From contig BAAIJX010000001.1 in assembly GCA_054600435.1 (NCBI GenBank), positions 124,001 through 188,000 on the forward strand: a stretch of 64,000 nucleotides of DNA. Reading direction: 5' to 3'. Source of the stretch: Neophaeotheca triangularis. Its lineage: Eukaryota. The notes beneath the pieces were generated by a model. It had not been told where the DNA came from, made no database searches, and saw nothing but the letters and a program-made list of their open reading frames with translations. Position numbers and translations under genes: made by a program. Shown here piece by piece: positions 22,032-53,047 of the stretch; position 1 is the stretch's first letter; each line of letters begins with the position of its first letter.

Positions 22032-23249
22032 TTAGCGACGGTAAAGCGCCCGACGACGGGTGAAAGTCGCATTCCCGCCGGAGGCGGAAGACGAGGAACC
22101 AACCCTGCCGACACCGGCGTCCGCAGTCACGGCATTGGCAACGCCGTCGGCAGCCTGAGCCTCGACAGCACTTGAACCAATAGAGGACAGCACGCTCGAG
22201 CTGCTGTAGGAGCCAAAGTCCCCCGAATCGGAAGAGACCGAGTTGGCGACACAGGGCCTGCCGAGAGCGGCGCTGCAGTCGCCTTCGGAGCCCGAGGGGA
22301 CGTTGAAGATGGCGCCGCCGTGGCTGGCGCTCTCGGGCGTGATGGGCTGCGCGACCGACTCGAAGACGTTGGCCTCGATGAGCACGCTGGCGCCCTCGGA
22401 GATGTCGAAGGCGTGGCCCGTGTTGTCTTGCCAGTAGTTGTTGACGGCGTGCATGACGATGTTGCCGTTGCCGCCGACTTTGGGGCTGCGGCCGGAAGTC
22501 GTGTGGATGTAGTTGCCCTGGAGGGTGATTTTGTCGGCTTCGCCCAGGAAGAGCATGGACCAGTAGTGGTGGCCGTCGCAGGAGGCGGACCAGTCCGTCT
22601 CGCCGTCGAATTCGTTGGACGAGATGGTGACTTTGCCCGCTTGCTCGTAGCCGGTGACGATCATCTGGCGGCCGGTGAGGGAGAATTTGCAGTGGTCGAT
22701 CCAGACCATGTCGGTGCCGGCGAGGGTGATGGCGTCGCCGCCCCAGATGTATTGCGGGTTCAGGTCGGTGAAGTGGATGTTTTGGATAATGACGTTGGTG
22801 ATGCCGTTGGCGAGACGGAGGCCTTTGCCTTTGATGACGGCGTCGCTGCCGACGCCGACGATGGACTTGTCTCCGGCGATGTTGATGGCGTTGACCCCGG
22901 CTTCATCGTAGGTCACTTCCACCGAGGGAAACGAGGCGTCGCACCAGTCTGCGCCGTTGATGGCGTCCTGGCCGCCGTTGCCCGGGCAGGTGTTGGAGTC
23001 TGGACGGCAGCCCGTCTCGGTCGTGCTGCCCTCGCTGCCGGTGAAGTCGTACGTCTTGTCGAGGAGGATGACGCGGGGTGAGTTGTCGGTGAGGTAGCTG
23101 ACCAGCTCGTCAATGTCGGCGGGTGTCACTGGGGACGCATCCCCACCGCCCGTCACGCCGGATGCGAAGCCAGATGCGGCTCCAACGACCTGCGCCAGCG
23201 CAGTGTTGGAGGCGTAAAGAGCGCCCAAAAGGAGGGCTTTGGGAAGCAT
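22032..23249 (-). CDS. secreted pectin lyase (polysaccharide lyase family 1)
   Basis: Signal peptide MLPKALLLGALYASNTALA; VVGAASGFASGVTGGG; KGKGLR; WGGDAITL; VWIDH; TSGRSPKV; HAVNNYW. Confidence 0.92.
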   Translation of the reverse strand: MLPKALLLGALYASNTALAQVVGAASGFASGVTGGGDASPVTPADIDELVSYLTDNSPRVILLDKTYDFTGSEGSTTETGCRPDSNTCPGNGGQDAINGADWCDASFPSVEVTYDEAGVNAINIAGDKSIVGVGSDAVIKGKGLRLANGITNVIIQNIHFTDLNPQYIWGGDAITLAGTDMVWIDHCKFSLTGRQMIVTGYEQAGKVTISSNEFDGETDWSASCDGHHYWSMLFLGEADKITLQGNYIHTTSGRSPKVGGNGNIVMHAVNNYWQDNTGHAFDISEGASVLIEANVFESVAQPITPESASHGGAIFNVPSGSEGDCSAALGRPCVANSVSSDSGDFGSYSSSSVLSSIGSSAVEAQAADGVANAVTADAGVGRVGSSSSASGGNATFTRRRALYRR

Positions 23250-24492
23250 AGTGGGGGAAAAAAAAAGACGAACAAAGAGCGACGAATCAAAGTAACGATG
23301 GGAATTGCAAGTCAAACAGGAAAAAGGCGGAAGCAGTAGGAATGTGAATAGCGAAAGGGAAATACCCCAAGGACGAGACCTACCTACCTTTATCATATTT
23401 TGTCGACAACATCAAGATGGGTCAAGCTTGTTGATTACCGGAATGCGAAGTGAGGATCGTCTGTCTTAGCAGGGCTTCTGATGAATGCTTTGCAAGCGTG
23501 ATGTCGTGGCATGCCGCATAGTATGGGAAATGGTCTAGGTGAAACAGACCCACACGACTTGCAAGGTTGGTTTCAAGGGTACTAACTAGTACTGGAGGTA
23601 GTAAGTAGTTAACATGCCGGGCCGAACCTCAGCGATCTTGTCTGTCTTGGGGAAGTCTTAACTACCTACATAGTATGAGGTAGACGTGTCGTCGATACAA
23701 AGGCAGGGCAGACTGCTACCTGGTCCTGGGTAGTACCTTAAGGGGTTACATTAACGTTAGCCTGGGTGTGCGTCCCATCGTCGTAAGCTTCTGAGAAGTG
23801 TGCATTGATACTACTATGTACCTAGTATTCCCAGGGTGAGTCTAAACTGTACGAGGTAGATTATTACTGTGTACCATCATACAGACCATGCCATGTATAA
23901 TGTACTTATTACTGTGTCAATCTGGCCTCTTACACAATTCATCCGTGACCATGGGAGGCGGCCCAGCTGCTTTCTTTCCTGCCCTCGACTCCTCGAGAAG
24001 GTGCCTTCTCTCGCCTTTGTTATCGTCCAGTCTTGCCTGCCACTCGTCTGAGCGGCTTCCTGGTACTGCGCTGAAGCGGTTGATACTCCTAAGTAGGTAC
24101 TGTACTGTACCTATGTACTAATAATCCATGCTGTCAAGAGTCGAATCACAGTAGAAACCTCCTCCCGTCCGCTAAAAGGTGACAGAGGCGACGCAAGGGG
24201 TAGACCGTATTGGGACACCCCCGCTGATGGTGGTGGCAACCTGTGATTGGTCAGTCTGACTTCACCCTACCTTCTGACTGCGCCTCTCTCTTATTTTTTT
24301 GCCATATCTCCTATCGGTACAAAGCGCCTCCGTCGTTGACCATGCATGACAGTGACTGACATTCGTTTTGAAGCCTGTGGCCTTCATCATTCGCTTACAG
24401 AGGAGACAGCATAACAACAGCCACTCGGCTAGACCAATCGCTCCCAGATCACAGCCTGACCTCAGCTCGTGAAATACAGCCAGGCGGCCAGC

Positions 24493-26406
24493 ATGACAAC
24501 GCAACAGGACTTTGCTTCGCTCGAACCAATCGCTTCTGCTGCTACTATTACCCCCGAGACGCAGAGCGAAGATGCACCAGAAGCCGAGTCACCTCGCCTA
24601 ACGACTTCACGCTCTCCGGAGCTCAACAGACAAACGACACAGGCCGCGAGACGACGCAGCACCCATTCAGTAACTGCAGACATAGACGATGGAGCACGAA
24701 TGAGGAGGCCGTCCCGTACTAACACCGTCAAGACCTACCATCAACCTGAACTTGCCGAACAGCCCAACTGGCATCCCGGTGCTGAACCCGGAATCGACAC
24801 GGCCGCTGAGCACGACGATGCCTTGCCACACTTGCAGGCGCTCAAGGCAAAGTGCGACATCACAATCATCGACTTTTCCGATTCCGAGGTCTTCACTGCG
24901 CAATGCGATAACAACGATTTGGCAAAGTTACTCGAAGAGCCCCAAGTGGAGGATACTTCCTGCCGATGGATCAGTGTGAATGGCTTGAGCTGGGACGTCA
25001 TCAAGTGCCTCGGAAACAGGTACAATCTCCACCGTCTGGCAATAGAGGATCTCATAAACACACACTCTCGTACAAAGGTCGACTTCTACTCCGACCACGC
25101 TTTTCTCTGCTTGACCCTGCAAAAGCTCGTGCGTCTACACAGACATGATGCGACTAAGGGCCCTTGCGATTGTCCAGGAGTCGAGCATTACGAAGATGAT
25201 AAGATGCCTTCCAGAGTCTCCAAGTATCGCAGGAGAAGCAGATGGGCCAACAACCGACGGGAACCCGACGAGCTGCCCCCTTCTTACCTTGAGGCCGGTG
25301 CCTCCGATAAATTCCAAGAGTTTATCACGGCACACAGCGGTACTTCAGACGCATCGCCGATTAAACCCATCCGGACCCTCCATCGGTACGATAGCGCGCA
25401 GATACCGGAGCACACCGCGTTCATGGAACGCCACAGCGCTCTGAGTAGCGAAGACTTGGTTGTTAGTGTTGAGCAGGTCGCCATGTTTTTGTTGGCAAAT
25501 AACACGGTCATCTCGTTCTTCGAGCATTCCGCACAGGATGTGGAAGACCCAATTCTGGATCGGCTTCAGAGTAGTGAGACGATACTGAGACGGAGTTGCG
25601 ACGCCTCTCTCCTTGTGCAGGCCATCATCGACGCTGTCGTCGACTTGACTATCCCGGTCAAGGACGCCTACAACAAAGCCCGGAAAGACCTGCAAGTCGA
25701 TGCCCTTACAAACCCCGACATCAAAACATCCCGAGCCCTCCACATCTTTGGTGAAGAGATTGACATGCTGCAAAACCTCTTCAAACCCATCGTCCATCTC
25801 GTCAACGCTTTACGAGATCACCACACCGAGGCCACTACCTTTGTACACCCTTACGAAACCAATCCCGACGAATCCGCCCCGCCCAACGAGTCACGTCCAG
25901 CTAACCGTGCCAATCACCGTAACCGCGAGGGCGTGCCCAACTTCCAGCGCATATCATCCGACTTCCGACGCCTCGTGGTCCACCGCAACCAACCCGCCAG
26001 CAGCGTCACCATCTCCCCCTTAGCCCGAACCTACTTCGGCGACGTCCTCGACCACTGCATCACCCTCATCTCCACGCTCGAGCAAATGGATGCCAGCGCA
26101 AACAACATCTCAACCCTCATCTTCAACACGGTTGGCGCCCGCACCAACAACTTCATGTACATACTCGCGCTCGTGACCGTCTTTTTCAGTCCTTTGACCT
26201 TCATTAGCGGATACTTTGGCATGAACTTCGCCAATGGCGCTGGACTGGATCACTCTTTTGCCTTCTTCTGGTTGATCGCCGCGCCCAGTTTGGCGGCTTT
26301 TATGATTATTGTGTTTGGGTATATGCTCTGGGATAACGTCAAGGACCTTTTGGCTAAAAGGGGTGTTCGGGAGCATAGGAGCAGGAGGAAGAGGAAACGG
26401 GTGTGA
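24493..26406 (+). CDS. CorA-family Mg2+ transporter-like protein
   Basis: RWISVNGL; LHRLAIEDL; VEQV; YFGDVLDH; PLTFISGYFGMNF (GMN signature) followed by a TM helix. Confidence 0.9.
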   Translation: MTTQQDFASLEPIASAATITPETQSEDAPEAESPRLTTSRSPELNRQTTQAARRRSTHSVTADIDDGARMRRPSRTNTVKTYHQPELAEQPNWHPGAEPGIDTAAEHDDALPHLQALKAKCDITIIDFSDSEVFTAQCDNNDLAKLLEEPQVEDTSCRWISVNGLSWDVIKCLGNRYNLHRLAIEDLINTHSRTKVDFYSDHAFLCLTLQKLVRLHRHDATKGPCDCPGVEHYEDDKMPSRVSKYRRRSRWANNRREPDELPPSYLEAGASDKFQEFITAHSGTSDASPIKPIRTLHRYDSAQIPEHTAFMERHSALSSEDLVVSVEQVAMFLLANNTVISFFEHSAQDVEDPILDRLQSSETILRRSCDASLLVQAIIDAVVDLTIPVKDAYNKARKDLQVDALTNPDIKTSRALHIFGEEIDMLQNLFKPIVHLVNALRDHHTEATTFVHPYETNPDESAPPNESRPANRANHRNREGVPNFQRISSDFRRLVVHRNQPASSVTISPLARTYFGDVLDHCITLISTLEQMDASANNISTLIFNTVGARTNNFMYILALVTVFFSPLTFISGYFGMNFANGAGLDHSFAFFWLIAAPSLAAFMIIVFGYMLWDNVKDLLAKRGVREHRSRRKRKRV

Positions 26407-27250
26407 TTGGAAGGTTGTACTTCTGGTTAGGGATATTGGAGGTTTCCTGAGGAGCAAGGCTCGGGGGTGTGGACGACCTGAGGGTGAAGACTTTTCCTGA
26501 GCATGGAGGTGTCATTACGGCGTTCAGTAGGAGAGTATACCCCTAGTGTTATCTGAGAATTCATTCTAGCTTACGTTCCTACCCCCTGCTCCCTCCGTTC
26601 GACTGGAGTCTGCCTCGCCCACCAAAAGCTTTCCCCTTTAGCTTCTCAAGAGTAATAGGGCCCCTCCACCTCACCTTACAAACGAGGTTGGCAGGGAGGT
26701 CCAGGCTTGTGGGAGCTCGGCTGAGATCTGGAGGGCCATCTGGCTATTCTCCGCAACTTGCTAGAAGCCTTGGGATCAGGAAGAAGCGGTCAATTGTAGG
26801 CGGAAAAGGGTGAAATACCAGTGATCATACTACGTACCCGCAAAACAACACTGTTAGGACGATGACGCCATGGCAACCATGCCCTGCCCTTGACCCCCTT
26901 CACTGTACTTTGCACCTCGTCATAGGCGTAGGCGGCAACGCTCCCAAGGCATTCCATTCACTGAAACCCGACTCGTGTTGCCATTGCTGAGTGGCCCGTG
27001 CGTCCACTCTCCCTATTCCCAACTCTCATGCCCTGTGACTTGCTGCTACCTTCTCTTCACCCTTTCCCACAACAACCATATTCACGGGGGCAAGCACCGC
27101 AACACCTCATACTTGGCTGGCCGCCGCTACCAACTCCTTCCAAAACTTGGTCCTCTGCTCCACAAACCGAAGCGAAGCATTTTGGAGGTAAGTCTCCCCT
27201 GTAAGCCCCCATTAAACTCACCCGTATTAACCCCGGAGCGACCAGCCACT

Positions 27251-27703
27251 ATGAACTTCACCTCACACATCCGAACCCTGCACCGCTACGATGCCGACGA
27301 GTACAAGCTGTGGAAGATTGAAGTCCGAGACGTTCTAATCGCCAACAACGCCTGGGAGCAAATCACCGACGAAGCGATCCACGACCACAAATGGGAGGCC
27401 AACGACGCTCTCGCCCGCCTCATCATCCGCCACTTCGTCGACGAGGATCTGGTGGAAATGGTGGCCTGTCTTGGGACCGCGAAGCTGAGCTGGGACTTCA
27501 TCAAGTACCGCGTCAAGGTTTTGACGACGATCCAGCAAAGGGGCGTCTTCGATCCGTATGGCATTGGGCTCGGCGATCAGGAGAAGAGGTTTCTCGCGCG
27601 TCGCGAGCGTTTGTGCTTGATTAGGAACGGGGTTGCGGAGTCGGTTATCGATGATACCATGTGGAGCATCGATAGCGAGGAAGAAGAGGACGTGTGGGAG
27701 TGA
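27251..27703 (+). CDS. Ty1/copia Gag N-terminal-like protein, copy 1 (150 aa)
   Basis: YKLWKIEVRDVLIANNAW..WEANDALARLII..TAKLSWDFI matches the copia Gag pattern (DUF4219 / Retrotran_gag_2-like) by eye; putative 5'-UTR intron 27188-27245. Confidence 0.65.
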   Translation: MNFTSHIRTLHRYDADEYKLWKIEVRDVLIANNAWEQITDEAIHDHKWEANDALARLIIRHFVDEDLVEMVACLGTAKLSWDFIKYRVKVLTTIQQRGVFDPYGIGLGDQEKRFLARRERLCLIRNGVAESVIDDTMWSIDSEEEEDVWE

Positions 27704-28266
27704 CGGGGCTCTGCAGCCTAGCTAGCTTGCGTGATCACGCTGTCGTGCTGTTGGTGCAATCCGCGTAGCTTGATCCAGTATACCACAGCAAACCTCTCAA
27801 GGTCCCTACTTCTTCATCTGAGCGTATCTACTACCCACGCTCGGGTACCATAGCTTATCAATTCGGCTATCTTCATACCCGAACTTACCGTTTCACATGG
27901 GAGGTGCTGACCGGTGTCGCCTGATGACCTCATGCATCTTCTTCGGCTTCACTTTGGCCCGCCCTCCAGGTGTTTTGATGCGTGATCCGTGCGTCGAACC
28001 TACCTACCTATATCAAGCCCGCCAACCTCGCTCTTTCCCTACTTAACTCTTTGCATAACAAAGTCAATCACCATAATTGACCAATTCTGGGCTCCAAAAA
28101 CCAAGCTGATGCGAACAGCATCTCGCTTTCGGACATAGCTTAGATTGCAACACCCATCACGACACGGCGGACACGCGGTGAAAGTCAAAGCACTCCTCAA
28201 AGTCAGCACAGTTTTGCTTCGCCTGGCCCACACGATATCCATACTGACCAGAGGCAGACCACCAAG

Positions 28267-28818
28267 ATGCAATTCGCCGAGTGCATTGGTCTCCTCGACG
28301 AGAACGCAGGCAAAAGTGCTTGGGCGTGGCGAATCCAAGTCAAAGACGTCCTCATGGCGAACAAAGTCTGGCAACACGTCAACGGCGAACACCAACGTCC
28401 ACAGGAGAAGTCGGCTGCGCAAGAATGGGATTCCCAGGACGCTCTCGCTCGCCTCATCATACGCCGCTTTTTGGTCAACTACTTGGTCAAGAAGGTTCTC
28501 GTCTTGGCAACTTCACAGGAGACTTGGGATTATCTTGAGGGACGTACCAAGGCCCTGGCGGATCTGCGCGCCACGCGTGACGACGGCCCTTCGGACGATG
28601 AGCTCGAGTTTCTTGGATTTGAGGACGAGGATAAGGGATGCCCGGCTTTGCTAAGTTCGAGCGTCGTTTCGCGGCGAGGAAGCGTTCTTAGATTGGACCA
28701 CGAGGCTGCATACCAGCGTTCTTTGCTGTGGCATCCAGCAGACAGCTTGCCTCTGTGCCCAAGACGATTTGAACTTGATTGCCAGTGCATGGGGTTGCTC
28801 GCTCGACAGCAAGTGTAG
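28267..28818 (+). CDS. Ty1/copia Gag N-terminal-like protein, copy 2 (183 aa)
   Basis: WRIQVKDVLMANKVWQHVNG..P..WDSQDALARLII..TSQETWDYLE; shares DALARLIIR with copy 1; putative 5'-UTR intron 28202-28257. Confidence 0.65.
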   Translation: MQFAECIGLLDENAGKSAWAWRIQVKDVLMANKVWQHVNGEHQRPQEKSAAQEWDSQDALARLIIRRFLVNYLVKKVLVLATSQETWDYLEGRTKALADLRATRDDGPSDDELEFLGFEDEDKGCPALLSSSVVSRRGSVLRLDHEAAYQRSLLWHPADSLPLCPRRFELDCQCMGLLARQQV

Positions 28819-29710
28819 CTTTGTACCCTCATCTCATCTCATCGCATGGTTCAATGCCCAGGTATTGTTGTGCCTACGCCCACTGTTGCCGTTCTCCCAG
28901 TGTAAGTGGCCCTTTGACAAGTCGACTTCCTTTTCGGCTTCACTTATTCCTACTTCCATTCGTGGTCTGTGTGTCGATTTAGCCCATAGCTTGGGATTGA
29001 TGACCACGCGGTTGCCAAGTAAGATGCAGAATGGATGTCTCGTGATAAGCGCGATAGCTCGAACACAGCAAGAACAGTAACGAAATACAGGAACCATGCT
29101 CTTCTCTTTCCAACAAGGTGCGCTGTCCGCCATTATGTGATTTTAATGGTACGATGCTCTGCTGGAAGGAAGCACTTCAATGTGAAATCCAATGAGAGGC
29201 TCGGAGGTTCAAGAGATGACCCAAAGTTTCTCGTCGCTTGAGTCGTTCTTCTGGACTTCGGTCCCAGGAGATCGCCATACATCAGGTTGACGAGTGATTC
29301 CAAATGAAAAGCGCCGTTTGAGCTACGCAGTGGACCAAATCGTCCCGCTTGTCCAGACGTATCATCCTCGTTCAGCTCATCTTGTCATGATACTTCCGGA
29401 TAGGATCGCATCGCGCCTTTCCGTGACCATCAGCCCCACCCCAACACACACGAGAGTTGTCTAAAACAACAAGACCGCATATTCCACCTCACCACCCAAG
29501 TCTCCTTTCGACTGGACATCCTGGCACGAACCCACACCACCTCTTCGCGCAAGCTCTCCCAGAAGGCCACAAGCTGGTGCTCAAGCTCTCGAGTACCAAC
29601 AGCAAGCCTCTTCTTCTTTCAGTGAATCCCCATACCCCCCCAAAAGAGAAGATTCACTCCACGTCTGCAAAGCACATCGCTCTTTCACAACAGTTCTTCC
29701 AGTACCAGCG

Positions 29711-30055
29711 ATGGACCTCAACGGCATCCAGTTTGCGCGCAAGCTCTCCTCCGACCCAAACGACTACGCGAGCGGATATTGCGGACGCTCTCCGAGCGAA
29801 AGGCATCGCAGGCCACGTCACAGGCTCCAGCTCGAAGCCCTCCCGCATCCACGGCGGCCGGCCTTGTCGATGAGACATGTACGCCAGTGACGCTAGCTTC
29901 CGAAGCACGCGCGGGCTGAGTGGGAGTGCAAGAACGCCGAGGCCTGCTTCATCATTAGGGCCACTCTTGAGAACGACGTGGCCATGCAAGTGGATTTCCT
30001 CGGACCTGCTGTGGAGGTGTTTGGGACTTTGGAGGACGAATACGGCCACAGTTAA
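29711..30055 (+). pseudogene. frameshifted copia Gag-like gene, copy 3
   Basis: MDLNGIQFARKLSSDPNDYAS / shifted frame DIADALRAKGIAGHVTGSSSKP / original frame after stops RAEWECKNAEACFIIRATL..AVEVFGTLEDEYGHS*. Confidence 0.55.
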
Positions 30056-30434
30056 AAAGTGCTGGGGATATTATGCCGAGGGAGAGGGTCGGGAGTGGAA
30101 GCACTGCTTTCGTCTGTGGGATCACGAAGCCCGCTGCACATTTCCCAGCAAGCGCTCCCGATCGCTGTTGATGACTTCGTCTATAGCTTTGAGTCTTTCA
30201 GCATCAGCTACTAGACACAAGAGGGTACACTCAGTACTTAGCTCGCCAGTATCAAGAACACCATCAAATGCTTATCAAGTCGCTCAACCTCGCCTCCCAA
30301 ATGCTGAAAGAGTCAATCCCAAACGCCAGGCCGTAAAATCCCACTACTCATGAGTTATCCACTCTTGTCAACGTCAACACAACTCAAGATTGATCCTTCT
30401 CCATGCTGAGAATGAGATTAAGCAGAACCAATCT

Positions 30435-32022
30435 CTACGAGTTCCCCTGGCCACCATCAGTTGGACTCATATCCACATTCGTGCTGCTGAAGTCCAAGTT
30501 TCCAGTCTGACACCACCCATTAACCGGCAAGCAAGACAGGTACTTGCACCAGCCGCACCCAGTCCGCCACTCATAAAAGTTCCTCAGAAGTAGTATGAAG
30601 CCGATGAGGCAGCCTAGAAGAGCAGCGGCGCGAACCAACCACCAAGACCACCAAAGACCCTTCCTGTTGCGGAAGAAACCAATAGGCTGGCGAAAGAATC
30701 CTGTTATACCTTCTTCGCGGGATGTGCGTGAAGGAGCGGGCTGGGTCTCTGGAATTTGGTAGGGGTCGTAGTTGACGGGGATTTTAGAGGTGCGCTGGGA
30801 GAGTTTTGCTGGACTGCGGAGGAGACAGACACCTAGCACTAGTCCCATGAGGAAGCCGCCAATGTGGCTAAAGTTGTCGAGACCCGGTAGCAAGCCGAGG
30901 ATGAAGGCAATGACTATGTCCACGAAGATCCAGGCTAGTTCGACTTTCGGCGAGGCGTGGGTGCTCCAGTTGTAGAGGAGGTCCAGTAGAGTGATTGCGA
31001 GGATGCCGAAGATGCTTCCACTACACCCGGAAGAGGCGATTCCTGTTGCGGCGAAGTTGCCACCAAGCACGAAGCCAAAGATACCGGCGGCGAAGTATAC
31101 AAGGACGAAGCGGACACTACCGATTAGCTTTTCTACATCGCGACCCAATGTGAGCTGTAGCAAAAGGTTGAAACCGATGTGAATGATACCAGCGTGGAGG
31201 AAAATGGGCACGATGAAGCGCCACCACTGGTTTGGCATGTTCGGGTCTGAGAGGTCGCCGTTCGGCTCGGGGTTCGGGACACCACCAAAACCGCAAAGGT
31301 CGGAGAGCGTGCAGGAAACGTCGTCGCCTTCGAAGGAGGTGGCGTCAGGACAAGGCCATAGGATGGGCTGAGTGTTGTTTTGTACGTTGGCCATGTTGTG
31401 CATGCAGGGCTGGTAGCGCGCGCCCATGTTGATGAGCACGTAAGGAGATGGCCCGATCATTGGGTTGAACTGCGGCTTGATCGCAATCGGTGTGCCAGTG
31501 AGAACTCCTATATATGTATCGTCAGCAACCATCCATGCTTTGATCTCGCCTACGTGGCCAACACTTACCCATCCGGACAATTTCCGCTATGAAGACAACC
31601 AGTTGTACCACTGACAGAGTGAAGCAGACCCAAGTTATCTTCCCCGAGAACCAGCCATCCTTGCTCTTTCGCCTTCGCTTCTTGTGCGGGTCAGTATCTC
31701 TTACAAATGGGTCCACCGGCTCTGGCGCGAGTATTGGGGCGACCGAGGCCGTAGAATCATGCTTCTTCCTCCTCCCAGTCAGGGGTATGGCGTCGTTGTC
31801 TTCGTAGGGATCGGCATCGTCTGGTATCCTGCCACTTGCGCCCGAGTAGGATTGGGAGGGAGTCTGGTGTTGGTAAGAGTATCTCGGGTCGTCGAAGGGC
31901 GATTGTGATTGTGATGATGGCGGAGGGAGTGGTGGTAGCGGCGCATCGTTGCGGCGATCGTAGTAGTCGTTGTAATGATCGTGGCCGTAACCGGGTTGCT
32001 CGTAGTAGTTGTTGGCTGCCAT
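30435..32022 (-). CDS. rhomboid-family intramembrane serine protease; exons 32022-31569, 31507-30435
   Basis: NPMIGP; WWRFIVPIFLHAGIIHIGFN; GCSG (catalytic Ser); DNFSHIGG (catalytic His); intron 31568-31508 GTAAGT..CTGAC..TAG. Confidence 0.9.
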
Positions 32023-32388
32023 GGAGAAAGTACTATGCTTTGAGATGGTCGAGTGCAAGTAGAAGACGGGACTTAATGGTGGTACTGAAGCTTCCGCCGG
32101 CGGATCCAGAGTATTAAGTGGTTAGTATGAGGGTGAGACAGGAAAGATGAAGAGCGGCGGTTGCTTCCAAAACAGGCCGAAAGAAGCGAAGATGCGTGCG
32201 GGCAATGCAGCTGGTTCTCTGGCGCCTGCTCAATCCTCTAAACACCTAAGAAGGTGAATGGTAGGCAGAGAAGACGTGCTTGGCGTGGATTGTTTGACGG
32301 TGGCGCATGTGACGACAATGCGGCCGGGGAATCAAGAATACATGTGGCTTGAAGCAGACAAAAGTAACAAAGCGACGGGAGACAATGA

Positions 32389-32418
32389 TGTAGTAGTAGT
32401 AGTAGTAGTAGTAGTAGT
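32389..32418. repeat. (GTA)n microsatellite
   Basis: gtagtagtagtagtagtagtagtagtagta. Confidence 0.85.
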
Positions 32419-33230
32419 AACGCAGAAATTACCAAGGACGTGTCTCGTTGAAAGATGAGGCTGGAGGGAGGTGGCCAGTGGGAGCTTCCACCTGCATTGT
32501 CCTCGGTGGTGGTGGTCGCGGTGGTGGTCGTCGTCGTTGACGCACGTGCATGACATGCATGTCCAAAGCACCCGACCGCGGTGTGGGTCTGTCTCCAGCT
32601 CCAAGACTGACTGCAGGTGGCATTCGAGGTTGCTTACGACAACAACCTTGGAACACTACTACTACGGTGAAATTCTGTGCTGATGGGACCAAAATCCTGT
32701 TCCCTCAAGACGAGAGATCCAGCAACTGGTCGGCGGTAGTTGGCCCCTCAGAAGGCCTTCTACTTACCTCACGTTGCATGGTCGCCATACCTTTCAGCCT
32801 CCTCCAGTGAAGCCTGGCTGTTGTCACAACGGCAAAATACTGACTTCTGATTCTGCAAGAGCTTGCACACTGATATGCCAGAGTTATCTTCGTTTACCGA
32901 CCGCTCACGCTGATCGACGTCGGTCATGCTTTTCGGAAGGGCAGAAACAAAGAGATGGCCACATATTTTCTTTGACGGAAGTACCCCCTTTGTCCCCTGT
33001 AAATGAAATGTCGACAACAATGGCACAATCGCCTTGTTAGAATCCTTTCATGGTTCAGAGAGCACGAGTATACAAGTCCAAGTCTCGGTGCCATTCCTTT
33101 TCATTTCTTATTTCAGTAGAAACGTCGCGCGAAAAGTGTTATACTGCCCGAACTCACCACTAACAACACCACAAGAACATCAAGCACTTACGAGAGCCTT
33201 GGATACGCCCATACTGCCCTCATAAACACG

Positions 33231-49222: not shown

Positions 49223-52200
49223 ATGTCGCTGAACGGGCTAGACGAACCGACGATTCAGGAGGCATACCAACAATCAATTGCCGAAGCGGGAGGATGGTCA
49301 GTCACTACGTCGCAACATGCGCAAAAGCGTCCGAGTACCTTGCTAAGGCTCATATAACAGGTTCCTATTGAAATATGTGTCGCGCGACTCTGTAGAACTT
49401 CATGGGAAAGGCAAGGGGGGCGTGCACGAGGCGCGGAATGCCATTGCCAAGTATGAGGAAGCCTCCCCTTTATACGGCCTCATCGTGTATCGGCGGCGGA
49501 AGATTCTGATCAAATACATCCCTGAGAGTACTTCACGCCTTTTGCAAGGTAGGGCAAAATGTTCAGCTAGCGACCAGGAAGTTCAGCGAGGCTAACAACC
49601 CACGAGCACGCACGGCTGTACATTTCCACGACGTTGTAGAGCGCTACTCGCCTTTCGAAAATCTGCTCGAAATCGCGACCGCCGACGACCTAAACGATAC
49701 CTCTCTGGCCGCCTCGTTTCCCCTCCATACCGCCTCACCTTCTACTTCATCTAGTCGGCTCCAGCTCCATGAGATTAGCGAGGATGGAGAAGATACCGGT
49801 CCGCCTAAACGACCGACAAGCATACGAGCAAACACCGGCTCAATCTTTGGCACGCAGCGATACAAGATGGAACGCCGAGTAGACCAGATCATGCGATCAG
49901 ACTCTCCAGCAAGAACCCCTACACCCTCAATACGATTTAGTACCGATGGCTCTTCTCTATCCGCTCCACCTGGCTCTCCACCCACCCCTAAAGCCTCATC
50001 AAACTCTGGACGACATCCAACTATGGACTTCGGTCTTCGGCACTTAAACTCATCGAGTGAAGAGAAGGCACAGTCGGATGAAGTGGAGACGGAGGGCGTG
50101 GTCGGAAAAGACGACAAGACGAGCATTGCGGCGTCAGCAGATGGAGAACCAACTTCAGAAACACCCTCACCCTCAAAAGCGGAAGTCCCGGTCCAGGAGG
50201 CTGCTGAAAAGTCAGCGGAGGTGGAGGCCGACCCAGGCAAATCTACTGTCAAAACAGATGCGACAGAACGGTCAGTGCAGCGCAACAGCATCTCTGAAAC
50301 CCGAAGCCTTTCTGAACGACCAAAGTTTGATTACGACGAACCCTACGACTTCAGCAAATTCGATGCGCTTAAGCCGAAGGTCAAGCTCGGTCCAAGACCT
50401 GTGGCTGCTGGGGAAAGAGCGAAAGCGAGCGTCGCGACTCTTCCCATCAATCACAGACCTATTTCGAAGAAGCAAGAACAGTCAAGGCATAGATCGCAAG
50501 GGCCAATGAACTTGCCGGCTCCCGCATCCGCGCCTACCTTTGTACCGCCGCCCGTCCCAGAGACACCCGAGTACAGTCCGAGACCGGTGTTCAAGGGCGG
50601 CAGCATCAAGTCTTTGCCCTCTTTCAAATCCTCCACCATGAAGCCAGATAAAGCGAGGTTGATGAAGGCGGTCGAATTGCAGAAGCGGAAGCAACGAAAA
50701 TCTGGTACTCGCGAGCCGGCTTCTGACCACGCAGTTGAGACTCAGGCAGCGACGGAAGCGTCAGAAAACGCGCGAACAGGATCCAGTCAGGACGAAGACC
50801 GCCCACAGGATCTAGTCAAAGCGATACCTCCCGAACAAGCCTCCGACCAAAGAGCGGCTAGCGAACTCGCGCCCTGGCCTCGAGACGACCATTTGAAAGA
50901 AGAAGATGGGCAATTGCAGACCAAAAAGCCGGACTCTGGTATTTTAATGGAGTATCAACGATCAGAACAAGGTGGGTCTGCAGCTGGTAAGAACGACAGC
51001 AAAGTTGGCGAGGTGCACGCGCAACGGGAGCCGGAGGCATTGTGCTCTTCTACTCGTTTATCTGAGACGAGCGGGGTGTCGGCCTTTCATGAGGGCGCGG
51101 ACCCCGAACCGTCGGAGGACACAAAAAGAGAAAAGATGGATGGCCCTGTTTCCGAGCCAGTGCAGCCAAAGGAGACTGAGATCGACGAAAGACTGGGACC
51201 TCACGCCATACTCGAAAGTCGGAGCGAAACGGTTCCAGTACCAGATAGCAATCGAAACGCACCAGAGACATCTCCGACCGGCATTGATGAAGTTGGTGCT
51301 TCAGAGGATCAAATATCACCACTTGCAGACGATGCTGACGCGCTTTCGCCGTCTGGAACTGTATCGCCAGTAGCGGAAGACATGGCAGCGCAGTCGTTGA
51401 GGATTAGCCACCACAATGTCACTACGGCGAAGAAGCGGCGCGGAATAGTTGCTCCAATACAGGTGGACGAAAGCAATGACAGTCTCGCGGACGACGAATT
51501 CGCAGACGAAATGCAGGAGGCCACCGTGCACGATGCGAAGCCAATGACTGTTGCCAAATCGCCCATCGCAGAAGTCTACCGGAGACGACCAAGCGCAATG
51601 TCAGGAGGTTCGACACAGTCCGTTCGGTCCAACCAAGACGCGCATGGACACAACGTCCCCTCGTCGATGCACGTCGATCGATTCTACAGTAGTCCCGACA
51701 ACCTCACGCCTGGTGCAGCGTCACTTCCAACCTCGCGTACACCTTCGTTCTCAGCTAGTCAGGGCGATTCACCGAATGCTGAGCGCGGCGATCTGATTGC
51801 CGGACGCAAGCGAAATGTCTCTTCTGGCATTACGAAGCGCATTCAGGCTCTCGCGGAACACTCTAGCAGAGACCCTAGCCCAACTAATCGGCCAAGCCCC
51901 TCGGCAGTGCCCTCTCCTGACCCTCCCAATGGCACGGTAGGTGATCGAAAGGCGTCGATCAGAGACCAGCCGCGTCCCAGAAGCAGCTATTTCTTTAGGA
52001 AAAAGACCGAAAAGTACGGACCTATCGCGCCTCTGGAGGCAACTGCTGGTGCGCCAATGTCTAGCACGCCTGTGTGGAATGTTCAGCACAATGATGTGAG
52101 CGACCGTAATTCCGTCTCCGTGACGGCGAGAATTGTCCGACCTCAGTCTCGCAATAAGACCAACGCGCTCCCTGAAGGGGAGCTGCGACATTCCGACATC

Positions 52201-53047
52201 CTTGTCAATCACAAGCGGACGACGAATTCGCCCAAGAAAGCCGAAGAGTGGCAATCAGTCGACACGAACGTACCTGTTGCATCACCCAAGTCGGAAGTTC
52301 CGCTAGCTAGCCAAACGCCTTCTTCGCCCACAATCACCCGTCCTTCTGGATCGAGTATCAGGCACCTTCATTCGGCTAGCCGACTCTCATTTGGACGTCA
52401 CAAAGCGTCGCCCGTCCAGGAAGACGTTCCGCAAACTCCGGCATTGCCCAATACCTCGTCATCCAATTCTATCTTCTCAAACGACGAGAACGCTGCTCCT
52501 AAGGAGGGTAGCAGGACCAGCCGCTTCTTCAAGCGAATGAGCAACATAGGCGGAGGCAGCAAGCGCAAAAGCATTTCGCAGCAGTCTATGATTAGCAGTG
52601 TGAGCGTCGCGGGGACGGACGATGCTCGACCAGTGGCAGCTGGTAAGGAACAAAACGACAAGCCCCCCGCAGTCGTTGTTGGGGATCTAAACATTCAGTT
52701 CCCTGACAGCTTGGTGAGTCAGCAGCCTCCAGTAGTACCACGTTGAACACTCACTAACACGTATCTAGCTCTGGAAACGCCGATGGGTCAAAATCGACGA
52801 AGCCGGCTATCTCATCTTCTCGATCCCCCAAGCTATGGATCACCAGCGCGGCCTCTCAAAGAGGTTCCACCTCTCAGACTTCCAAGCCCCATACGTCCCT
52901 GACTTGGACCGCCAAGAGCTGTCCCACAGCATCCTGCTCGACTTCTCCGACGGCACAACCCTGCAAGTTGCTTGCGAGGACTCGTCGACGCATCGGCAGG
53001 CCCTGCAACTGTTGCGGACTTACCACAAAGTGTGGCAAGCATCCTGA
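49223..53047 (+). CDS. large protein with N-terminal ADF-H-like domain, disordered middle and C-terminal PH-like domain; exons 49223-49296, 49361-49548, 49607-52713, 52769-53047
   Basis: MSLNGL..GGWFLLKYVSRD..YRRRKILIKYIPE (ADF-H-like); LNIQFPDSL|LWKRRWVKID..GYL..ILLDF..LQVACE (PH-like). Confidence 0.8.

Follow-up and report, generated by a model that had tools for sequence, protein, structure and literature searches.

The 64-kb stretch of DNA analysed here (the window) is from Neophaeotheca triangularis, which we take to be a halotolerant black yeast-like fungus, judging by the organism name attached to a deposited protein (P0002, see below). Between a CorA-like Mg2+ transporter gene and a rhomboid protease gene, an interval of about 4 kb holds two plus-strand open reading frames (ORF1 and ORF2) and a third, broken copy (copy 3), all of which are almost certainly derived from the Gag protein of a Ty1/copia retrotransposon. 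We lean slightly towards the reading that these copies represent a small, old and narrowly distributed host-resident family that comprises only the capsid N-terminal domain and has been co-opted, with a decoy as the mechanism that we infer. It is probable that the family is maintained as a set of functional genes, at least in the case of ORF1. Interference with copia Gag assembly would be a possible mode of action, and we put it forward tentatively.

The three plus-strand loci begin at 27251, 28267 and 29711, so that successive starts are 1016 and 1444 nucleotides (nt) apart. The initial annotation of this DNA had placed three same-strand loci 1–1.5 kb apart between the CorA and rhomboid genes, and this layout is confirmed, including both flanking families (PF01544 and PF01694). 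It had also counted three genes, of which two stand as ORFs; the third is a pseudogene, and the locus is two ORFs plus one pseudogene rather than three genes. ORF1 and ORF2 share 42 of 122 residues (34% identity, BLASTP E 2e-18), in agreement with the strong divergence reported for the copies. The motifs W-x3-V-x-D-V-L-x-A-N-x2-W, W-x3-DALARLIIR and T-x4-WD, quoted previously for copies 1 and 2, are indeed common to both. ORF1 is composed of an N-terminal domain (approximately residues 1–96), one further helix (residues 108–125) and an acidic tail. The helix carries an RF-x-[AS]-R-[RK] motif (residue 113), which is kept in ORF1 and in the relatives P0001 and P0003, and in ORF2 in the +1 frame only. 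By eye, this motif seems to resemble the QRF...M motif behind the N-terminal domain of the ordinary copia Gags P0006, P0008 and P0012.

The assignment to Gag is carried by profile, relatives and fold. ORF2 passes the Pfam family PF14223 (Retrotran_gag_2) with 30.9 bits (E 2.3e-7) against a gathering cut-off of 27 bits. The match places ORF2 residues 28–92 on profile positions 4–71 of 172, so that the part of the profile for the capsid C-terminal domain is not covered. ORF1 alone matches no Pfam family at E ≤ 1, and copy 3 remains below the PF14223 cut-off with 12.9 bits (E 0.074). The Gag N-terminus pattern claimed in the initial annotation therefore stands for PF14223 through ORF2; its second component, PF13961 (DUF4219), shows no match at E ≤ 1 for ORF1, ORF2 or the frames of copy 3, which is weak evidence given the very short profile.

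The AlphaFold2 model of ORF1 has a predicted local distance difference test (pLDDT) value of 79.5 and a predicted template modelling score of 0.68. Its residues 6–94 superpose on residues 3–92 of the Drosophila Copia capsid (8vvw_A) with Z 10.7 and a root-mean-square deviation of 2.3 Å over 88 residues, which bears out the proposed structural similarity to capsid N-terminal domains. The second Copia entry, 8s41_A, reaches Z 9.4, and the next of 48,161 chains falls to Z 5.1. Foldseek also ranks the two Copia entries first (E 7.5e-3 and 2.9e-2). For the entries 9rxx and 9rxy of the Ty1 capsid C-terminal domain we obtained Z 4.5 and 4.3. At the sequence level, a search of the Protein Data Bank with the family profile gave 0 matches at E ≤ 10. 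On the basis of the model, we conclude that the ORF1 domain is the copia capsid N-terminal domain and that its start coincides with that of native Gag.

We searched 1.84 billion representative proteins exhaustively with the family profile in HMMER and obtained 145 proteins at E ≤ 1e-3. Only the clusters P0001, P0002 and P0003 stand apart (E ≤ 3e-22). P0003 has 323 residues and carries the family domain at residues 158–258 with E 3e-22. The remaining matches are copia Gag N-termini, including proteins of Gag-Pol length, and plant proteins with tandem modules. An example of the former is P0012 (658 residues), which is matched at residues 8–87 and has CCHC and integrase-like sequence behind the match. 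Past the three clusters, the next relatives have E 1e-9 or weaker, apart from the plant tandem-repeat proteins. In a collection of 5.8 billion proteins the family forms two clusters at 90% identity, P0002 (NCBI, 2 members) and P0001 (Logan, 3 members). For P0003, the ESM Atlas gave copia-gag clusters only, at scores of at most 0.90, which are at lead level. Metagenome loci from the JGI were considered as further relatives and rejected: 213 pattern matches reduced to 3 loci at 29% identity, which are not family relatives, and in one of them (L003), ORFs for gag, a CCHC motif and a reverse-transcriptase-like protein mark an ordinary copia element.

Among the plant proteins, P0004, P0005, P0010 and P0015 contain two to four copia-Gag N-terminal modules in tandem within one chain; their assignment to plants is by Atlas taxa for similar clusters. 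The structural neighbours in the Atlas include a cluster with PGG and ankyrin families. These plant proteins look like an independent recruitment of the same domain.

No other parts of a retroelement were found at the locus. Our scan of the interval (26.1–30.6 kb) covered 56 of 74 six-frame segments of at least 35 residues, among them all but one of the 33 plus-strand segments; the 18 left out are 17 minus-strand segments and the plus-strand segment 30394–30507. In this set there is no CCHC knuckle, protease, integrase or reverse transcriptase/RNase H, and no further PF14223 match downstream. CCHC, protease, integrase and reverse transcriptase are likewise missing from 94 of the 107 long frames of the whole window. 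A repeat search of 22–36 kb gave four direct-repeat families, none of which flanks the array, and no pair resembling long terminal repeats (LTRs). The longest direct repeat in this region is a 73-nt paralogous coding block with 73% identity, and the spacers between the copies share no similarity beyond it. The lack of these parts, as first described for this locus, is thus upheld in the segments and frames scanned and in the repeat search. With neither LTRs nor pol in what was scanned, the locus does not qualify as a retrotransposon.

Copy 3 consists of three colinear pieces that are not all in one reading phase. The last piece (29897–30052) matches the family profile with E 7e-5 for a 4-sequence profile and 2e-5 for a 47-sequence profile. 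Of the 1899 segments that the window yields in six frames, only this piece, ORF1 and ORF2 match at E ≤ 0.01, and the 64-kb window holds no further family copies. Upstream of 29897, copy 3 shows a weak colinear match to the profile (domain E 1.4). The degenerate pieces ascribed to copy 3 are therefore real, and they are frameshifted. In contigs of run X2, which is introduced below, one base at 29774 is missing and pieces 1 and 2 are joined, with the frame ending at the same stop. We tried by hand, non-exhaustively, to rescue copy 3 by splicing: with none of the downstream AGs tried does the sole GT upstream of the stop reach the frame of the last piece. The frameshifts between its pieces and the stop that terminates one of them make copy 3 a pseudogene.

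The ends of ORF1 and ORF2 deserve separate comment. P0002 (120 residues), deposited as 'hypothetical protein MBLNU230_g0053t2 [Neophaeotheca triangularis]', is identical to ORF1 over its first 116 residues and ends in ...RFLALGYR. Splicing of 27600–27640 would replace the basic tail of ORF1 by LGYR and a stop. At 41 nt, this intron would be unusually short for fungi and may be an annotation artefact. ORF2 is 91% identical to P0001 (141 residues). In a tblastn search, residues 126–141 of P0001 match 28641–28688 in a frame other than that of ORF2, and in run X2 one additional G behind 28652 brings the ORF2 tail back into the P0001 frame. The length of 183 residues for ORF2 is therefore caused by one base missing near 28652 and the resulting out-of-frame read-through. 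The read-through tail (28654–28815) has a codon score of −0.08 and is without coding signal. The ORF lengths of 150–183 residues given initially are correct as read, with the upper value stemming from this frameshifted tail. An assembly error is a possible cause of the frameshift.

Upstream of its ATG, the ORF1 frame remains open for 119 codons (26894–27250, plus strand) without any ATG. The P0003 gene model has an N-terminal extension of 157 residues and a D at the position of the ORF1 start M. Some species may use a different start, or the family may possess an exon further upstream; chance may also account for the open frame. We rejected a long N-terminal extension of ORF1: no start codon is available for it, and the 8 sites that differ from X2 are not patterned by codon position (the third position accounts for 4 of 8).

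A maximum-likelihood tree of 47 sequences joins the four family members in one clade with a Shimodaira–Hasegawa-like approximate likelihood-ratio test support of 92. Within it, ORF1 pairs with P0003 (support 96) and ORF2 with P0001 (support 97). It follows that the tandem duplication predates the split from the organism of P0003. Both paralog lineages have stayed open since the duplication, and both persist in at least one other organism or strain. With copy 3 dead and the tail of ORF2 frameshifted, the array of one intact, one damaged and one dead copy fits birth-and-death evolution. The view of an old Gag family under this mode of evolution, put forward from the start, is in accord with these data.

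The question is whether the open frames have been maintained by selection. As an alternative, the copies could be neutral relics of an ancient copia insertion that was reduced to the 5' part of gag, duplicated locally twice and is now slowly decaying. Over 98 aligned codons, ORF1 and ORF2 are 51, 65 and 46% identical at codon positions 1, 2 and 3, and where both encode the same residue the third base is common to 21 of 42 codons. At the observed proportion of synonymous differences (Nei–Gojobori pS 0.642, pN 0.408), sequence evolving neutrally would not have retained two colinear frames that are open from the same start. Shuffled ORFs are still open in just 0.1–0.5% of trials (23 of 20000 for ORF1 and 100 of 20000 for ORF2). 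The ratio of nonsynonymous to synonymous change (dN/dS) is about 0.41, compared to 0.96 and 1.12 for the same columns in the frames shifted by +1 and +2; it is reduced in weight by the protein-guided alignment of saturated sequences, a bias that the shifted-frame controls fix only partly. Codon usage is host-like and only in frame: when seven of the host genes in the window serve to train the codon score, they themselves score 0.18–0.27 and spacers are negative, while ORF1 reaches 0.40 and residues 1–129 of ORF2 reach 0.30. P0001 and ORF2 differ at 2 of 74 residues in the core and at 10 of 55 elsewhere (Fisher p 0.004). In the text of Wang and Han (2021, PMC8321522), co-option of gag is recognised by selection together with shared synteny or a host-congruent phylogeny across species. 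For selection, the findings here are the paralog dN/dS of about 0.41 and the excess of changes in the termini over the core.

Several further observations weigh against co-option and would be expected of neutral relics. They come in part from run X2, whose contigs carry the same organism label, are about 2–5% diverged and cover the whole interval (30 of 30 bins). The locus is present in X2 with all three copies, and ORF1 is intact there, with 7 base differences in 453 and no indel. Five of these changes are nonsynonymous and two synonymous, which yields a dN/dS of about 0.65 from too few changes to separate it from 1. The nonsynonymous changes alter four residues (34, 43, 44 and 46) in a surface loop before helix 3. 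The divergence of ORF1 from X2 (7/453) is barely below that of the upstream spacer (8/351). The proposed check on selection is thus answered for the paralogs, and for the comparison with X2 it is not: constraint is long-term, and recent constraint is not demonstrated. Contigs of the RNA run X5 cover 30218–30500 only, which corresponds to the 3' end of the rhomboid gene, and none covers the gag-like ORFs. Of two further runs, X3 matched with three contigs of 151 nt and X6 with none, and neither is informative on habitat or expression. The family is extremely rare, the conserved tail of ORF2 is lost by frameshift in this strain, ORF2 was not met as a deposited protein in the protein-database searches, and copy 3 is dead. 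Weighing both sides, we consider neutral relics an unlikely explanation.

The X2 contigs show a further peculiarity. Two contigs of equal depth (68.8 and 68) both cover 28353–28571, a 219-nt part of ORF2, one with 5 mismatches and the other with 10. At some indels, for example at 28676 and at 29446–29635, about half of the depth is with the indel and half without it. The X2 strain may be heterozygous, diploid or a hybrid, or may have two copies of the locus.

In mature retroviral capsids, helices 1–3 of the N-terminal domain hold the capsomer ring together, and it is through the C-terminal domains that one ring is connected to another. A resemblance of the copia capsid to mature HIV CA has been described (bioRxiv 10.1101/2024.02.21.581285). 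For ORF1, a trimer is predicted with a score of 0.38, compared to 0.00 for the best of 3 controls; in the calibration, 21 of 30 solved homomers and 0 of 23 single chains attained that mark. The prediction speaks less strongly for assembly than it might, as the model may have learnt the solved copia capsids and its score was calibrated with dimers rather than trimers. Contacts agree by at least 81% between runs, and the partner pLDDT is at least 66. The modelled interface is head to tail, with residues 3–6 and 20–33 of one copy against residues 49–72 of the next. It packs helix 1 (20–33, with V-x-D-V-L-x-A-N) against helix 3 (49–72, with the family-invariant DALARLIIR). The model thereby supports head-to-tail self-association of ORF1.

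From this we propose the following scheme. The founder would have been the first ~125 residues of a Ty1/copia Gag, comprising the capsid N-terminal domain and the first following helix, with the rest of Gag, pol and the LTRs gone. It was duplicated in tandem before the split from the organism of P0003, followed by birth and death of copies. The protein would keep the ring-packing surface of helix 1 against helix 3. Without the lattice-linking C-terminal domain, it could self-associate or join copia Gag rings and not extend the lattice. Given that a ring-forming domain is present and a lattice-linking domain is not, such a protein could join Gag rings and stop shell growth. It would act as a host-encoded decoy that poisons the assembly of virus-like particles by a putative resident copia Gag. 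Help for a role as Gag decoy or restriction factor would come from the predicted head-to-tail self-association.

A more far-reaching version of the decoy is doubtful. In it, host defence would have arisen from the capsid half opposite to that of every known fungal case, with N-terminal domains that insert into or cap pentamer and hexamer rings and end shell growth, and the array would be an arms-race cassette. A cassette gaining and losing copies would explain the intact, damaged and dead copies and the clustering of changes in the loop. Against a decoy of either form stands that the known Gag-derived restriction factors of fungi, as far as they are described in the sources cited below, use the C-terminal capsid domain.

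The coding constraint would equally be expected if the co-opted capsid-domain protein had a cellular role apart from transposon control, for example as an oligomerisation or scaffold module like the SCAN and Arc-like domains in animals. The predicted self-association would suit such a module, and so would the conserved basic tail motif, RF-x-A-R-R, which might then be a nuclear-targeting or nucleic-acid-binding element. The independent recruitment of the same domain in plants, seen in the tandem copies of P0005 and P0015 and in the Atlas cluster with PGG and ankyrin, points in the same direction, as do the published fungal Crtg genes, for which the text of PMC8321522 gives no known anti-transposon role. 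On the other hand, turnover, strain-specific damage and the loop-clustered changes (34, 43, 44 and 46) are more typical of conflict genes, and so narrow a family is unlikely in a core cellular process. We therefore regard a cellular role as improbable. It is very improbable that we are dealing with gag-only units that belong to an unrecognised non-autonomous mobile element or to a larger genomic repeat with many copies: the window covers 64 kb and not the genome-wide copy number, which leaves some room for it, but there are no terminal repeats, the spacers have only the 73-nt coding block in common, the 5.8-billion-protein collection holds just two family clusters, copies at 34% identity are far from near-identical, and the region is gene-dense and housekeeping in character.

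The features of the locus are collected in Table 1.

Table 1. Features of the gag-like locus and its flanks (window coordinates)
Feature	Position	Strand	Basis or remark
CorA-like Mg2+ transporter gene, left flank	24493-26406	+	PF01544, E 2.8e-26
ORF1, 150 aa (amino acids), intact stand-alone copia-Gag capsid N-terminal domain	27251-27703	+	ORF, paralogy, predicted fold
Possible 41-nt GT..AG intron in ORF1	27600-27640	+	implied by isoform P0002
ORF2 as read in the window, 183 aa	28267-28818	+	ORF; PF14223 match
Conserved portion of ORF2 (residues 1-129), the other copia-Gag N-terminal domain paralog	28267-28653	+	PF14223; P0001
ORF2 ancestral C-terminal tail (..KFERRFAARKRS, then stop)	28641-28691	+	+1 frame in the window
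Copy 3, pseudogene	29711-30055	+	family-profile match, translations
Copy 3, piece 1	29711-29773	+	M..NDYAS
Copy 3, piece 2	about 29775-29870	+	ADIADALRAKGIAGHVTG.., ends in stop
Copy 3, piece 3	29897-30052	+	AEWECKNAEACFIIR...EDEYGHS, then stop
Rhomboid protease gene, last exon, right flank	30435-31532	-	PF01694, E 2.1e-33

In the Pfam scan of 94 of the 107 long frames, the surrounding region is compact and gene-dense, with frames that encode cyclin, MDM10, ribosomal proteins, cullin, Chs7, TRAPP, Las1, NAD kinase and similar housekeeping proteins. The GC content of the gag-like interval is ordinary (0.49–0.58). With regard to repeat-induced point mutation, base composition is normal. Three other features were observed. 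A trinucleotide microsatellite (32330–32460) lies directly upstream of the first exon of the rhomboid gene and reads V9 and T10 on opposite strands (ORFs 32258–32458, plus, and 32332–32556, minus). A frame with a pectate-lyase domain (22035–23411, minus strand; PF00544, E 2.1e-15) stands out by its GC content of 0.62–0.65 compared to 0.47–0.56 in its surroundings. An open frame of 1078 residues (49510–52743, plus strand) has no Pfam match at E ≤ 1e-5 and is the longest unexplained frame in the window.

Co-option of copia gag in fungi has precedents. Wang and Han describe three gag co-option events in fungi, of which Crtg12 and Crtg13 derive from Ty1/copia, are found in Dothideomycetes and are single copy (PMC8321522). 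Like these two, the present family consists of host genes that descend from copia gag, lack LTRs and pol and occur in the same fungal class. It differs in several respects as far as their description goes: Crtg12 and Crtg13 are from Pleosporales and Mytilinidiales, exceed the present ORFs in length (217 and 293 aligned sites compared to about 125–150 residues), and are single copy compared to a tandem array with a dead member. For Crtg13, the same text reports no closely related retrotransposon. Compared by description only, the evidence argues for a family separate from Crtg12 and Crtg13, because the next relatives of the present family have E 1e-9 or weaker, the plant tandem-repeat proteins apart.

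The closest functional parallels are found in yeast. In Saccharomyces cerevisiae, DRT2 is reported as a domesticated Ty1' Gag that restricts Ty1' (PMC10951436), and Ty1 itself encodes the truncated Gag forms p22/p18 (PMC4599808, PMC8458377). As in these cases, the ORFs described here correspond to a truncated Gag of the Ty1/copia superfamily in a fungus, apart from an element, and the DRT2 locus is likewise described as structurally variable between strains. By the accounts in these sources, DRT2 and p22/p18 act on Gag or virus-like-particle assembly, which for the present family is a proposal. There, function was shown by retromobility assays, while our family is known from sequence and models. 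The analogy to Ty1 p22 drawn in the initial annotation is inexact. According to the published descriptions, p22 and Drt2 carry the capsid C-terminal domain, in contrast to the N-terminal domain plus one helix found here. In line with this, the DRT2 structure 9rxy gives Z 4.3 with the ORF1 model, against 10.7 for the Copia N-terminal domain.

The Drosophila Copia capsid (8vvw, 8s41) has the same N-terminal fold at about 15% identity. Copia Gag continues into a C-terminal domain, a CCHC zinc knuckle and pol, and is described as assembling T=9 shells (bioRxiv 10.1101/2024.02.21.581285); unlike it, the ORFs here stop after about 125–150 residues. The plant DUF4219/copia-Gag proteins resemble our family in that the same module was recruited into host proteins and is tandemly repeated. 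In the plant proteins the repeats lie within one polypeptide, some fused to ankyrin/PGG, in contrast to the separate small genes here, and the two are only distantly similar (E 1e-18 to 1e-6, values that the repeats improve).

In the literature searched, outside of which lie subscription journals and the supplements of PMC8321522, we found no description of a tandem array of gag genes with the N-terminal domain only in fungi. To this extent the claim of novelty stands. It is smaller than originally claimed, as copia-gag co-option in Dothideomycetes (PMC8321522) and a Gag restriction factor in yeast (PMC10951436) are already published. What sets the present family apart is the restriction to the N-terminal domain, the tandem arrangement with a dead member and turnover, and the very narrow distribution.

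Domesticated Gag genes are well studied in animals, where Arc, PNMA and Fv1 are examples. In fungi they are rare, with three deep co-option events described in PMC8321522 and DRT2 in PMC10951436. If the family does restrict copia elements, it would show that a parent element can be countered with either half of its capsid. ORF1 would then also offer a small, tractable protein of ~150 residues for studying how ring-forming capsid interfaces are poisoned. If the family is functionless, it would illustrate cleanly for how long a fragment of gag can keep the appearance of a gene.

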